Source: Escherichia coli (lineage in GTDB: Bacteria > Pseudomonadota > Gammaproteobacteria > Enterobacterales > Enterobacteriaceae). From it: 64,000 nucleotides of DNA. Below the pieces are notes generated by a model. That model searched no databases. It was given only the letters and a program-made list of their open reading frames with translations, and had not been told where the DNA came from. The first letter of the stretch is position 1. Each line of letters opens with the position of its first letter. Location: NCBI RefSeq assembly GCF_003334385.1, contig NZ_QOWN01000008.1; one strand, 5' to 3'. Positions 31 through 50,169 of the stretch are shown piece after piece. Made by a program: the position numbers and the translations under genes.

Positions 31-666
31 TCATATCAGGCGTAATACCACAACCCTTAAGTTAGCGCTTATGGGATGAAACCCCGCTTTCAACGGTTGA
101 ATACCGTGATAAAACAGCCGCGATTCACCGCCCCATACCACCACATCGCCATGTTCCAACAACAAACGTTTGAGCGGATCATTTCGTTTCAGGCCGCCAA
201 ATTGAAAAATCGCGGGTAAGCCCAGAGAAACAGAAACAATTGGCGCGCGCAGATCCGGTTCGTCTTTATCCTGATGCAGCGACAGTTTCGCGCCAGGAGC
301 GTAGCGGTTGATAAGACAAGCATCTGGCTGGAAATCTGGATAGCCCGCCGCCGTAGCCGCACGTTGACATAAATTATGAAAACTCTGTGGCATGGCGGGC
401 CACGGTTTATTTGTTTGCGGATCAATGGGCGAATAGAGATAACCTTGCCGATGGGTCGTCCAGCCCAGATGCCCACAGTTGGTCATCGCCACCGACATGG
501 TATATCCCCCGGGGGTGACCATCTGGCGAAACGGCGACTGGCTGGCAACGTCATTAATATCGCGGATCAGTTGCTCCGCAGCGTTAAAAGCAAAACGCCG
601 TAAAATTACCGCACCAGCCGCCAGTGGCTCTTGCCACGGTTCAGCATCGGCAAACAGATCCAACAT
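31..666 (-). CDS. alkB: AlkB Fe(II)/2-oxoglutarate-dependent DNA/RNA demethylase; the last ~18 codons differ from the canonical AlkB C-terminus
   Basis: Translation MLDLFADAEPWQEPLAAGAVILRRF... matches AlkB through the HxD...H iron ligands (SLHQDKDE, LFYHGIQP); start overlaps ada stop; C-terminus after GFHP diverges (see findings). Confidence 0.85.
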   Translation of the reverse strand: MLDLFADAEPWQEPLAAGAVILRRFAFNAAEQLIRDINDVASQSPFRQMVTPGGYTMSVAMTNCGHLGWTTHRQGYLYSPIDPQTNKPWPAMPQSFHNLCQRAATAAGYPDFQPDACLINRYAPGAKLSLHQDKDEPDLRAPIVSVSLGLPAIFQFGGLKRNDPLKRLLLEHGDVVVWGGESRLFYHGIQPLKAGFHPISANLRVVVLRLI

Positions 667-1730
667 TACCTCTCCTCATTTTCAGCTTCGCGGCGCAGCA
701 GTTGCGCTTTACGCGACACGCCCCAGCGGTAACCGGAAAGTGTGCCATCACCACGGACCACCCGATGACAGGGTATTATGATAGCCAGCTTGTTGGCGGC
801 ACAGGCGCTGGCAACGGCCCGTACCGCTTTCGGTTTGCCGATGGCGTTAGCCAGTTGCTGATAACTGACGGTTTCACCGCAAGGTATCGTGCGCAGTGCC
901 TGCCAGACTTGTTGCTGAAAAGCAGTGCCGCGAATGTCCAGCGGTAACGTCAGCGGCGTATCGCGTTGATTGAGGCTGGCGATCACTTCACGCACATGTT
1001 GCTGAAACATCAGATCGGCAGGCGCGTTGTCGGCAGCGGGAAACATCTGCTGCAACTCGCTGATTAGTGTCGCGTCATCATCGCCCAGCAATATCGCGCA
1101 AATCCCCCGCTCGCTTTCTGCCACCAGGCAACGACCCAGCTCACAATCAGCCAGCGCGTAACGCACCGCCAGATTTTCGCCACCGTGACGGAATTGTTTA
1201 GCCGTCATGCCCAGCGTTTCGTCAGCTTTGCGATAGTAACTGCTGCTGTCGGGGAATCCGGCGTTAAGAATAGACGTCGTCACGCTCTCCCCTTTCGCCA
1301 GCGATTCGCGCAAACGGCGAGCGCGCCAGGCCTGTTGCCAGGCTTTAGGCGTCATTCCGGTAGTCGCTTTAAACAACCGATGTAGATGAAATGGACTCAT
1401 CGCCACCTGGTCGGCTAAGGCTTCCAGCGTTACAGGCGTTTCCTGTTCCAGCAGTCGACACGCGTGGGTGATTTTATCCAACCGATGTTGCTGGGCATTG
1501 GCTTTTTCTGGCTGACAACGTTTGCAGGGGCGAAAGCCAGCGGCGAGTGCCTCGCTGGCATTTGCGTAGAAGGAGACGTTTTCCCGCAAAGCATGTCTGG
1601 CGCGGCAAGACGGACGGCAAAAGATGCCTGTGGTACGCACGGCGAAAACGAATTCGCCGTCGGCATTCGGGTCGCGGGCTAAGACAGATTGCCAGCGTTG
1701 ATCGTCAGTTAAGCATGTGGCTTTTTTCAT
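666..1730 (-). CDS. ada: Ada bifunctional transcriptional regulator / O6-methylguanine-DNA methyltransferase
   Basis: 354-aa ORF; N-terminal Cys-rich methylphosphotriester domain (FCRPSCRARH...CKRCQP), C-terminal PCHRV methyltransferase motif; operon with alkB. Confidence 0.95.
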   Translation of the reverse strand: MKKATCLTDDQRWQSVLARDPNADGEFVFAVRTTGIFCRPSCRARHALRENVSFYANASEALAAGFRPCKRCQPEKANAQQHRLDKITHACRLLEQETPVTLEALADQVAMSPFHLHRLFKATTGMTPKAWQQAWRARRLRESLAKGESVTTSILNAGFPDSSSYYRKADETLGMTAKQFRHGGENLAVRYALADCELGRCLVAESERGICAILLGDDDATLISELQQMFPAADNAPADLMFQQHVREVIASLNQRDTPLTLPLDIRGTAFQQQVWQALRTIPCGETVSYQQLANAIGKPKAVRAVASACAANKLAIIIPCHRVVRGDGTLSGYRWGVSRKAQLLRREAENEER

Positions 1731-4300: not shown

Positions 4301-4408
4301 TAACATCAAGCAATAATAATTCAAGGTTAAAATCAATAACTTATTCTTAAGTATTTGACAGCACTGAATGTCAAAACAAAACCTTCACTCGCAACTAGAA
4401 TAACTCCC

Positions 4409-4501
4409 GCTATCATCATTAACTTTATTTATTACCGTCATTCATTTCTGAATGTCTGTTTACCCCTATTTCAACCGGATGCCTCGCATTCGGTTTTTTT
4501 T
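4409..4501 (+). ncRNA. micF: MicF antisense sRNA (regulator of ompF mRNA)
   Basis: 93-nt sequence GCTATCATCATTAACTTTATTTATTACCGTCATTCATTTCTGAATG...GGATGCCTCGCATTCGGTTTTTTTT matches micF as recalled; ends in hairpin plus T8; divergent from ompC. Confidence 0.9.
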
Positions 4502-8156: not shown

Positions 8157-8351
<195 letters not shown>

Positions 8352-8356
<5 letters not shown>

Positions 8357-43970: not shown

Positions 43971-48035
<4,065 letters not shown>

Positions 48036-48046
48036 ACTCCTTTCTG

Positions 48047-48081
48047 ATGCCCGGTAAGCATGTGGTTACCGGGCATTTTTG
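48047..48081 (+). terminator. Rho-independent terminator after glpC
   Basis: Hairpin ATGCCCGGTAAGCATGTGGTTACCGGGCAT followed by TTTTT. Confidence 0.65.
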
Positions 48082-48227
48082 CGTACACGATTCCGTGCCC
48101 AATGTATGCGTTGCAACGCAGTGAAAATTCCTCTGAAAACGTCTCGCAAAGGCTGAAACTGGCAGATGTCAAAGGCCTGGGATAACCGTAATGTCGCGTC
48201 ATCATAAATATCAGGTGACGGACAACC

Positions 48228-49127
48228 ATGACCGAATCAACAACCTCCTCCCCGCATGATGCGGTATTTAAAACCTTTATGTTCACACCCGAAACCGCAC
48301 GGGATTTTCTCGAAATACATTTACCAGAACCACTGCGCAAGCTTTGCAACCTGCAAACCTTACGCCTGGAACCCACTAGTTTTATTGAAAAAAGTTTACG
48401 CGCTTACTACTCGGATGTTTTGTGGTCCGTGGAAACCAGCGACGGTGACGGCTATATCTACTGCGTGATTGAACATCAAAGCTCTGCAGAAAAGAATATG
48501 GCTTTTCGGCTAATGCGCTATGCCACTGCCGCCATGGAGCGTCACCTGGACAAAGGCTATGACAGAGTCCCGCTGGTGGTGCCGTTGCTGTTTTATCATG
48601 GCGAAACCTCGCCTTACCCGTACTCACTCAACTGGCTGGATGAGTTTGACGATCCGCAACTTGCCCGGCAGTTGTACACCGAAGCTTTTCCGTTGGTGGA
48701 TATCACCATCGTACCTGACGATGAGATCATGCAACATCGGCGTATAGCTCTGCTGGAACTGATTCAAAAGCATATTCGCGACCGCGATTTAATCGGCATG
48801 GTCGACAGGATCACCACGCTTTTGGTTAGAGGCTTCACTAATGACAGCCAGCTACAAACACTGTTTAATTATCTGCTGCAATGCGGCGATACCTCCCGTT
48901 TCACCCGTTTTATTGAGGAGATTGCCGAACGTTCACCACTACAAAAGGAGAGATTAATGACTATTGCTGAACGGCTACGGCAGGAAGGGCATCAAATTGG
49001 CTGGCAGGAAGGTATGCATGAACAAGCCATTAAAATTGCTTTGCGCATGCTGGAGCAGGGCTTTGAACGTGAGATTGTGCTGGCGACAACCCAACTCACT
49101 GATGCTGATATTCCGAACTGTCATTAA
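48228..49127 (+). CDS. rpnB: RpnB (YfaD) PD-(D/E)XK-type recombination-promoting nuclease family protein
   Basis: 299-aa [32 protein letters not shown]...; YhgA-like family recognised from translation. Confidence 0.88.
48957..49127 (+). CDS. Candidate intragenic small protein (56 aa) in-frame within the 3' end of rpnB
   Basis: In-frame ATG at 48957 preceded by a strong Shine-Dalgarno AAAAGGAGAGATTA at 7-nt spacing; the same RBS and start are repeated for ypaA. Confidence 0.4.
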
Positions 49128-49139
49128 AAGGAGAGATTA

Positions 49140-49325
49140 ATGACTATTGCTGAACGGCTGCGGCAGGAAGGACATCAAATTGGCTGGCAGGAAGGTAAAT
49201 TAGAAGGTTTGCATGAACAAGCCATTAAAATTGCTTTGCGCATGCTGGAACAGGGCTTTGATCGTGACCAGGTGCTCGCGGCCACCCAGCTAAGCGAAGC
49301 CGATCTGGCAGCGAATAACCACTAA
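49140..49325 (+). CDS. ypaA: YpaA, 61-aa paralogue of the RpnB C-terminal tail
   Basis: [64 protein letters not shown] with its own AAGGAG RBS; tandem diverged copy of the rpnB 3' end. Confidence 0.7.
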   Translation: MTIAERLRQEGHQIGWQEGKLEGLHEQAIKIALRMLEQGFDRDQVLAATQLSEADLAANNH

Positions 49326-49365
49326 TTAACACAGGCCCACAGCCGATCCCCATGGGCCTTTGATA

Positions 49366-50169
49366 TCAATAACTACCTTTTATGCGTGGCCCATTTTTGC
49401 CTGATTTAAACATCGCCAGTCGTTGATCCAGGGCATCGCTGTAGAGCATCGTGTCAACGCCAACAGCGACAAAGTTCGCTCCCCACGCCAGGCATTGCTG
49501 CGCCATATCAGGAGCCACAGCCAGAAAACCAGCCGCTTTACCCGCAGCACGGATCCGCCGAATACTGGTTTCAATAATTCGCTGCACTTCCGGGTGCCCG
49601 GCGTTATCCGGGTAGCCCAACGACGCAGAAAGATCCGCAGGTCCAATAAACACGCCATCAATCCCTTCGACGTCGAGGATTTCGTCCAGGTTATCCAGTG
49701 CCGTTTTACTTTCCACCTGCACCAACAGACAAAGCGAATCGTTAACTTGCGCCATGTAATTCTCAATGCGTCCCCAGCGCGCAGCCCGTGCCACACTGGC
49801 CCCGACACCACGCTCACCGTAGGGAGGATAGCGCGTGGCAGACACCACCTGACGTGCCTGTTCGGCAGTATCGACCATCGGGATCAGTAGAGTTTGCGCG
49901 CCAATATCCAGGACTTGTTTAATCAGCGGTTTACTGCCTTCCACCGGACGGATCACGGGTTGGCTGGCATAGGGCGCTACCGCCTGTAGCTGATGATAAA
50001 GATCCTGAATGGTGTTTGGCGCGTGCTCCCCGTCAATCAGCAACCAGTCATAACCAGAAGTGGCGGCAATTTCTGCCATATAGGCAGTCGTTGAGCTTAA
50101 CCACAGACCAATTTGCACTTCGCCCTTGCGTAAACGTTCTTTAAAGGGATTGCTTAATAATGCGTTCAT
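49366..50169 (-). CDS. rhmA: 2-keto-3-deoxy-L-rhamnonate aldolase
   Basis: ORF-track 368-aa entry trimmed to [24 protein letters not shown]... (267 aa); HpcH/HpaI aldolase family. Confidence 0.92.

Follow-up and report, generated by a model that had tools for sequence, protein, structure and literature searches.

Organization of the rpnE-ypaA Locus

The window, which is the whole 64,000-nt stretch of Escherichia coli DNA analysed here, carries on its plus strand a long open reading frame (ORF) with an in-frame start signal inside its 3' part, and this is followed directly by a small free-standing ORF and a hairpin. The features of the locus are listed below.

48228-49127, plus strand: full-length coding sequence of rpnE (yfaD), RpnE-L, 299 aa (ORF list)
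48249-48854, plus strand: N-terminal nuclease domain, Pfam Transposase_31 / YhgA-like, residues 8-209 (PF04754, E=1.2e-87)
48943-48956, plus strand: internal Shine-Dalgarno (SD) module AAAAGGAGAGATTA, with which tandem copy 1 starts (sequence, repeat search)
48957-49127, plus strand: rpnE-S, in-frame internal coding sequence, 56 aa, without an extra 4-aa repeat, end ...DADIPNCH (ORF list)
49126-49139, plus strand: second copy of the SD module (sequence, repeat search)
49140-49325, plus strand: ypaA (= rpnE-Ss), 61 aa, free-standing RpnS-type protein, one 4-aa repeat, end ...EADLAANNH, the ancestral type (ORF list)
49197-49208, plus strand: extra 12 nt AAATTAGAAGGT, encoding KLEG, in ypaA only, lacking in the rpnE tail (repeat search, alignment)
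49333-49359, no strand assigned (flagged on the minus strand): G+C-rich hairpin between the convergent ypaA and yfaU, a probable shared terminator

The first SD module directly adjoins the in-frame ATG at 48957, its GGAG core (48947-48950) lies 6 nt from this ATG, and the internal frame (48957-49124) gives a protein of 56 aa. The stop codon TAA of rpnE occupies 49125-49127, and its last two bases are shared with the second SD module (49126-49139), which is identical to the first and precedes the 61-aa ypaA ORF. The repeat search aligned 48943-49014 with 49126-49197 at 97% identity and 49008-49109 with 49203-49304 at 84% identity, and the 12-nt offset between these two blocks results from one extra 4-aa unit (KLEG) in ypaA. 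This insert sits in the hypervariable 4-aa repeat site of helix 1, and its exact placement is ambiguous within the repeat. RpnE-S and YpaA have their first 19 residues and a 16-residue core identical or nearly so; YpaA exceeds the RpnE tail by one 4-aa repeat and differs from it at 10 amino acids in the last 21 codons. An earlier note on this DNA had described an internal ribosome-binding site with an in-frame ATG at 48957, a 56-aa tail protein read from it, and a tandem copy of the same module with a diverged tail, the 61-aa ypaA. The internal start and its frame are present where the note had placed them, and the tandem copy was confirmed by the repeat search.

The bare motif AAGGAG-N4-8-ATG was not above chance, with 4 occurrences on both strands of the window versus 2.3 +/- 1.7 in shuffled sequences. 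What exceeded chance was the 183/195-nt tandem duplication that carries the SD-ATG module and, likewise, the exact conservation of this module in four other Escherichia species. A consensus scan of 48000-49450 found no sigma-70-like internal promoter.

Gene Identity and Family Membership

The gene is named rpnE in most RefSeq genomes and is flanked by glpC and yfaU, also in a K-12 derivative. The last 701 nt (48700-49400) showed 100% identity to K-12-lineage genomes. In published nomenclature, RpnB is YfcI and RpnE is YfaD (Kingston 2017, PMC5350276), and ypaA has been placed downstream of rpnE (Zhong 2023, PMC10400941). By the glpC and yfaU flanks, the RefSeq name and both papers, the gene is rpnE (yfaD), and the earlier note was wrong to call it rpnB (yfcI).

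The long ORF scored 697 bits against the NCBIfam equivalog NF007418 (cut-off 583) and 173 bits against TIGR01784, the model of the Rpn family. It carries the YhgA-like PD-(D/E)XK domain PF04754 at residues 8-209 (E=1.2e-87). Residues D11, D63, E82, Q84, R94 and D165, targets of mutagenesis in RpnA (Kingston 2017, PMC5350276), are all found at the same positions in the window protein. For the tail, YpaA matched NF007418 at positions 244-308 (E=3e-31) and the RpnA-S structure PDB 7TH0 over its full length (E=3.4e-4), and the only long gap in the latter alignment, 12 residues, lies at the repeat site. RpnE-S matched the RpnA-S chain 7TH0 and the C-terminal part of Rpn NCBIfam models. In precomputed annotations, PF27070 (HTH_Rpn_C) was assigned to both the RpnE tail and YpaA; a scan of an older Pfam-A library gave no significant family for the tail or YpaA, and PF14261 (DUF4351) was not detected.

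An AlphaFold2 model of YpaA, built on a 14-row alignment of tails, contained three helices at residues 3-37, 42-49 and 53-58 with medium confidence (pLDDT 74). The best PDB match of this model in Foldseek was 7th0 (prob 1.0, TMt 0.70). No model of PADLOC 2.0 (PADLOC-DB 2.0) matched RpnE or YpaA. The locus thus shows the PF04754 domain, the catalytic residues, the internal SD-ATG, a three-helix tail resembling RpnA-S and a varying repeat number, by which the Rpn L/S family is recognised.

Published Record on rpnE-ypaA and the Rpn Family

Ribo-RET peaks at in-frame internal starts have been reported in all five rpn genes, and the internal product of RpnE (RpnE-C) was found to be closely similar to the independent ypaA product (Meydan 2019, 10.1101/520783). 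For rpnE-ypaA, ribosome-profiling tracks from Onc112- and retapamulin-treated cells have been published (Fig. 2E), and chromosomally SPA-tagged RpnE-S and YpaA were detected on immunoblots in K-12 (Fig. 2H), in the study in which ypaA was renamed rpnE-Ss (Zhong 2023, PMC10400941). Internal transcription start sites were stated there for all rpn genes from published dRNA-seq, and the downstream tail copy was noted to vanish by deletion or by fusion (PMC10400941). The internal start, the small protein and the ypaA duplicate are already known, having been reported in 2019 and characterised in 2023. The earlier note had proposed mapping of translation initiation as a check, and such mapping has been published twice (Meydan 2019, 10.1101/520783; Zhong 2023, PMC10400941). 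Its statement that Rpn tail proteins had been proposed as intragenic antitoxin-like inhibitors also refers to real literature (Zhong 2023, PMC10400941).

For RpnA, B, C and P2, the RpnS proteins have been shown to be intragenic antitoxins of the RpnL nucleases. In these four, of which RpnP2 is plasmid-borne, RpnS counters the effects of RpnL, namely inhibited growth, SOS induction or DNA cleavage. The two proteins form an L2S2 complex, and in its crystal structure RpnA-S is a dimer built as a three-helix bundle. The L/S specificity depends on how many 4-aa repeats helix 1 contains: adding one repeat to RpnC-S made it unable to neutralise RpnC, and the converse was also seen. RpnA-S and RpnB-S showed no cross-protection, and protection against phage was found for RpnP2 only. 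RpnE and YpaA were covered in that work by expression only (all from Zhong 2023, PMC10400941).

In overexpression assays of toxicity, SOS induction and recombination, RpnE was the sole inactive paralogue (Kingston 2017, PMC5350276). RpnE-S was unknowingly co-expressed in these RpnE overexpression assays (PMC5350276). Our literature search for later work on the function of YpaA or RpnE returned only the 2023 paper and its commentary. We believe that RpnE-L may be a weak or silent toxin, or that its activity in overexpression assays may be masked by co-expressed RpnE-S.

Comparison with Known Systems

The K-12 rpnE / rpnE-S / ypaA system (PMC10400941; 10.1101/520783) is the same locus, with the same synteny, the same internal start and the same 56-aa and 61-aa products, and no structural difference was seen. 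RpnA-L / RpnA-S (yhgA, 7TH0) resembles RpnE in having an N-terminal PD-(D/E)XK nuclease and a three-helix tail produced from an internal SD-ATG. The first 11 residues of RpnA-S are identical to those of the small protein here, and the RpnA catalytic residues stand at the same positions. Unlike rpnE, RpnA in K-12 has no downstream free-standing copy, and the RpnA-S crystal chain lacks the 12 residues that YpaA has at the repeat site. Toxicity and DNA cleavage by RpnA-L and the L2S2 complex have been demonstrated for RpnA, whereas their RpnE counterparts would be expected by analogy.

Tandem duplication of the tail is also found in another paralogue. In some E. coli strains rpnC is likewise followed directly by a tail duplicate, rpnC-Ss (PMC10400941); this is a different paralogue with an independent origin, and it is for RpnC that repeat number sets specificity (PMC10400941). 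YpaA also resembles the free-standing DUF4351 (PF14261) / HTH_Rpn_C (PF27070) small proteins, being likewise a stand-alone RpnS-type protein with a match to PF27070. Classical type II toxin-antitoxin systems likewise rely on a small protein, labile or abundant, that binds the toxic enzyme directly and blocks it. Unlike these systems, the Rpn antitoxin is the toxin's own C-terminal domain made from an internal start, not the product of a separate upstream gene, and recognition takes place through self-identical dimerisation helices.

Variation of the Locus in E. coli

Of 5426 complete E. coli genomes, 5421 have the locus between glpC and yfaU, and 0 copies were found on plasmids. Its variation was read in a systematic 60-row sample of the 5,421 locus-bearing complete genomes together with 15 fetched representatives, and 47 further loci were added through five exact-protein look-ups. 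Two copies of the tail were found in about 35/60 sampled genomes, about 16 of them with the structure of the window and about 19 with other repeat numbers, and a single copy was found in about 25/60. At every two-copy locus that was read, the nuclease-attached tail ended in ...DADIPNC(G)H(Y) and the downstream copy in ...EADLAANNH or ...EADLAAKNH. Of the single-copy E. coli loci that were read, four had an intact rpnE (L006-L009), and in each of them the nuclease domain carried the ypaA-type end.

The number of 4-aa repeats was 0, 1, 3, 5, 6 or 8 in the RpnE tail and 0, 1, 2 or 4 in YpaA. The 10 intact two-copy haplotypes, written as (RpnE tail,YpaA), were (0,1), (1,2), (1,4), (3,1), (5,0), (5,1), (5,2), (6,2), (6,4) and (8,4), so that none of the 10 had equal numbers. 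Selection for mismatched repeat numbers was considered and rejected: random pairing among the 10 haplotypes yields no match with P=0.42, and the mismatch is therefore not evidence of selection.

The ypaA ORF was intact, with its SD and ATG conserved, in 56 of the 57 two-copy loci read; the remaining locus (L014) carried a frameshifted ypaA. At four loci (L031, L032, L034 and L049) the nuclease domain was disrupted and the small ORFs were intact. One single-copy locus (L037) had a chimeric tail that joins both types inside the last 21 codons, and this tail bears the signature of recombination between the two copies.

Ancestral Tail and Mosaic Divergence

An exact-pattern scan with one genome per species found the SD-ATG module in E. 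albertii, E. whittamii and two further Escherichia species. In all four, rpnE is present once and has a ypaA-type tail; the hairpin lies immediately 3' of the tail ORF, and yfaU comes next. From this distribution, the ypaA-type tail is ancestral and the nuclease-attached ...IPNCH end is derived. Because the single-copy outgroup species have the ypaA-type tail, it is ypaA that keeps the ancestral sequence.

The two copies in the window were compared by Nei-Gojobori counts. Between rpnE-S and ypaA, pS was 0.18 and pN 0 in the first 17 codons, pS was 0.11 and pN 0 in the 16-codon core, and pS was 0.67 and pN 0.25 in the last 21 codons. Synonymous change was thus lower in the first 33 aligned codons (pS 0.11-0.18) than in the last 21 (0.67; Fisher p=1e-4). 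Between ypaA and the outgroup tails, pS in the last 21 codons was only 0.12-0.43. These results, from small numbers of sites, suggest that the 5' halves of rpnE-S and ypaA have been kept alike by gene conversion. They also suggest, with the same small numbers, that divergence at the 3' end of the attached tail exceeds that within the genus itself, which could reflect an old divergence, a rapid divergence or an import. In all comparisons, of ypaA with rpnE-S and of ypaA with the outgroup tails, pN was lower than pS, which argues for constraint on ypaA and against its being a decaying fragment.

Working Model and the Role of YpaA

We believe that this locus is, with high probability, the chromosomal rpnE-ypaA of E. 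coli and belongs to the Rpn toxin-antitoxin family already described as "gene-within-a-gene". RpnE-L (299 aa) would be a PD-(D/E)XK DNA endonuclease with a C-terminal three-helix tail. Initiation at the internal SD-ATG (48957), as published for K-12, gives a separate 56-aa RpnE-S, which would come mostly from a shorter transcript made by an internal promoter. By analogy with RpnA, B, C and P2, the long first helix of RpnE-S would pair with the identical tail of RpnE-L, and an L2S2 complex would keep RpnE-L inactive until a trigger, presumably phage infection, frees it. On this analogy RpnE-S is the predicted cognate inhibitor of RpnE-L. ypaA is a tandem duplicate of the SD and tail unit, translated as a separate 61-aa RpnS-type protein. 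YpaA retains the ancestral tail, while the nuclease-attached tail has diverged in the repeat number of helix 1 and in the last 21 codons.

Two other readings of the locus come from database labels. According to RefSeq, the long gene encodes an ISNCY-family transposase, and the Pfam domain carries the label "Putative transposase, YhgA-like"; the locus would then be an insertion sequence and its repeats would be transposon ends or debris. One imperfect 13-nt inverted repeat (48165-48177 and 49355-49367) does flank the unit. However, chance alone would give about 0.6 such repeats in 1.4 kb, its right arm is the stem of the terminator and the locus is syntenic, so this repeat was rejected as a pair of transposon ends. 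The locus also keeps its place in 5421/5426 complete E. coli genomes and in four further Escherichia species and is absent from plasmids, and the literature records no terminal repeats, target duplications or autonomous transposition (PMC10400941). We therefore find an insertion sequence scarcely credible. It is also very improbable that ypaA is a decaying gene fragment, as RefSeq/PGAP has it ("hypothetical protein; incomplete; missing N-terminus", pseudogene). The pseudogene flag in most records, the frameshifted allele of L014 and the absence of a second copy in about 25/60 sampled genomes speak for decay. Against this stand the intact ORF with conserved SD and ATG at 56/57 two-copy loci, pN below pS, and the detection of YpaA by chromosomal SPA tagging and initiation-inhibitor profiling (PMC10400941), and a newer PGAP/Pfam name is "Rpn/YhgA-type helix-turn-helix domain-containing protein" / PF27070. 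The intact ORFs, the pN and pS values, the tagged protein and the profiling tracks together refute the reading of ypaA as a decaying fragment.

The more difficult question is what YpaA does. The earlier note had spoken of two candidate inhibitors for one nuclease; the presence of a second RpnS-type copy stood, whereas shared inhibition is plausible but less likely than not, given the one-repeat mismatch, the 10 substitutions and the RpnC precedent. If YpaA were a fully redundant second inhibitor of the resident RpnE-L, both small proteins would bind the same tail and raise the dose of antitoxin. The near-identity of the first 19 residues and the 16-residue core agrees with this, as do the same SD-ATG module on both copies and the detection of both RpnE-S and YpaA in K-12 (PMC10400941), and a doubled antitoxin dose could account for the non-toxicity of RpnE in K-12 (PMC5350276). 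However, YpaA has one more repeat than the RpnE tail, the numbers are unequal in 10/10 two-copy haplotypes, and a one-repeat difference abolished RpnC neutralisation in both directions (PMC10400941). The 10 amino-acid differences in the last 21 codons and the lack of cross-protection between RpnA-S and RpnB-S (PMC10400941) also weigh against it. We regard full redundancy as possible, although we lean away from it. Alternatively, YpaA could be a non-cognate spare tail, either a stored alternative specificity cassette or an orphan antitoxin of ancestral specificity, and recombination between the near-identical 5' halves would swap or fuse tails and change the self-recognition code of the nuclease. 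The ypaA-type tail of the single-copy outgroup species, the joining of the N-domain to a ypaA-type tail in L006-L009 (4/4 single-copy loci with intact rpnE) and the chimeric tail in L037 are consistent with this. The mosaic divergence (pS 0.11-0.18 vs 0.67, Fisher p=1e-4) fits gene conversion of the 5' halves, and copy loss by deletion or fusion has been noted (PMC10400941). On the other side, a lack of matched repeat numbers is expected from random pairing (P=0.42), and in E. coli the single-copy alleles could simply represent the ancestral state without any fusion. A spare tail of this kind seems to us somewhat unlikely.

Within the rpnE-ypaA reading of the locus, the published repeat-matching rule, taken over by analogy, and the unequal repeats call the idea of two inhibitors for one nuclease into question. 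This rule, the one-repeat difference and the 10 residues exchanged in the last 21 codons together make it improbable that YpaA and RpnE-S could replace one another. We also put forward, as a speculation that is rather unlikely to hold in full, that YpaA is a preserved ancestral tail and not a second inhibitor. The attached RpnE tail would have escaped from it through a change of repeat number and a replaced 3' end, and the pair would constitute a two-cassette device for switching specificity.

The RefSeq labels "ISNCY family transposase" for rpnE and pseudogene fragment for ypaA, which stand in most genomes, mislead automated readers. The survey sharpens the questions of whether RpnE is a live toxin and whether YpaA can bind it in view of the repeat mismatch and the diverged end. 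If the speculation on the two-cassette device is true, recombination in the homogenised 5' halves would attach the stored tail to the nuclease domain, as the single-copy and chimeric alleles may illustrate, and such a fusion would change the self-recognition code of the toxin and antitoxin under phage pressure. The survey likewise sharpens the question of whether tail duplication followed by fusion is a general route by which Rpn nucleases change their self-recognition code.

Variation at the rpnE Locus in Other Strains

The nuclease domain of rpnE was truncated or split at four of the loci read for comparison, and the small tail ORF or ORFs were intact in all four. The rpnE products at these loci were 217 aa (L031), 213 aa (L032), 61 and 252 aa (L034), and 251 aa (L049), respectively. 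The toxin has been outlived by the antitoxin-type genes at L031, L032, L034, and L049.

A chimeric tail was found at a single-copy locus, where no separate ypaA is present:
L037, ~540-790, minus strand, single-copy rpnE with chimeric tail (E. coli strain SCPM-O-B-8794)
This tail has a 13-residue stretch of the attached type, followed by the EADLAANNH ending of the ypaA type. The mixture of the two tail types implies a crossover within the last 21 codons.

Many single-copy strains have only a truncated yfaU pseudogene, annotated as "aldolase/citrate lyase family protein", with yfaY directly behind it. This arrangement was seen in L007 (E. coli O26 RM10386) and in about 14 of the 60 rows of the E. 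coli genome sample. The rhamnonate genes yfaV, rhmD, and rhmR are deleted next to the rpnE locus in the strains with truncated yfaU.

Annotation and Other Elements of the Window

In the fetched RefSeq records, the RefSeq/PGAP product name of rpnE is "ISNCY family transposase", and ypaA is annotated as a pseudogene in most genomes ("hypothetical protein; incomplete; missing N-terminus"); the two genes together span window 48228-49325. The label "Rpn/YhgA-type helix-turn-helix domain-containing protein" is given to ypaA in newer RefSeq records only. The published function is at odds with both older labels, transposase and pseudogene.

Two antisense ORFs lie opposite the tail copies:
48975-49124, minus strand, 49 aa, opposite the first copy (rpnE)
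49175-49285, minus strand, 36 aa, opposite the second copy (ypaA)
Their mutual likeness is due only to the tail duplication, and nothing marks them as genes.

Rfam matches elsewhere in the window were as follows, and no tRNA genes were found in its 64,000 nt:
4408-4501, plus strand, MicF sRNA (114 bits)
8162-8238, 8276-8352, and 38531-38601, minus strand, three naRNA4/REP-type elements (76-80 bits)

Sequences Flanking the rpnE-ypaA Unit

48165-48177 (GATGTCAAAGGCC) and 49355-49367 (GGCCTTTGATATC), 13-nt imperfect inverted repeat enclosing the entire unit
48049-48080, hairpin (CCCGGTAA…TTACCGGG) followed by a T run, directly past the glpC stop

Chance alone would produce about 0.6 such inverted repeats in 1.4 kb, and the right arm (49355-49367) belongs to the terminator stem, so the repeat is probably without meaning. 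The hairpin looks like the glpABC terminator; it was left unflagged by the consensus promoter/terminator scan, which also detected no promoter in 48081-48227. If the hairpin is indeed the glpABC terminator, rpnE would have its own promoter in 48081-48227.
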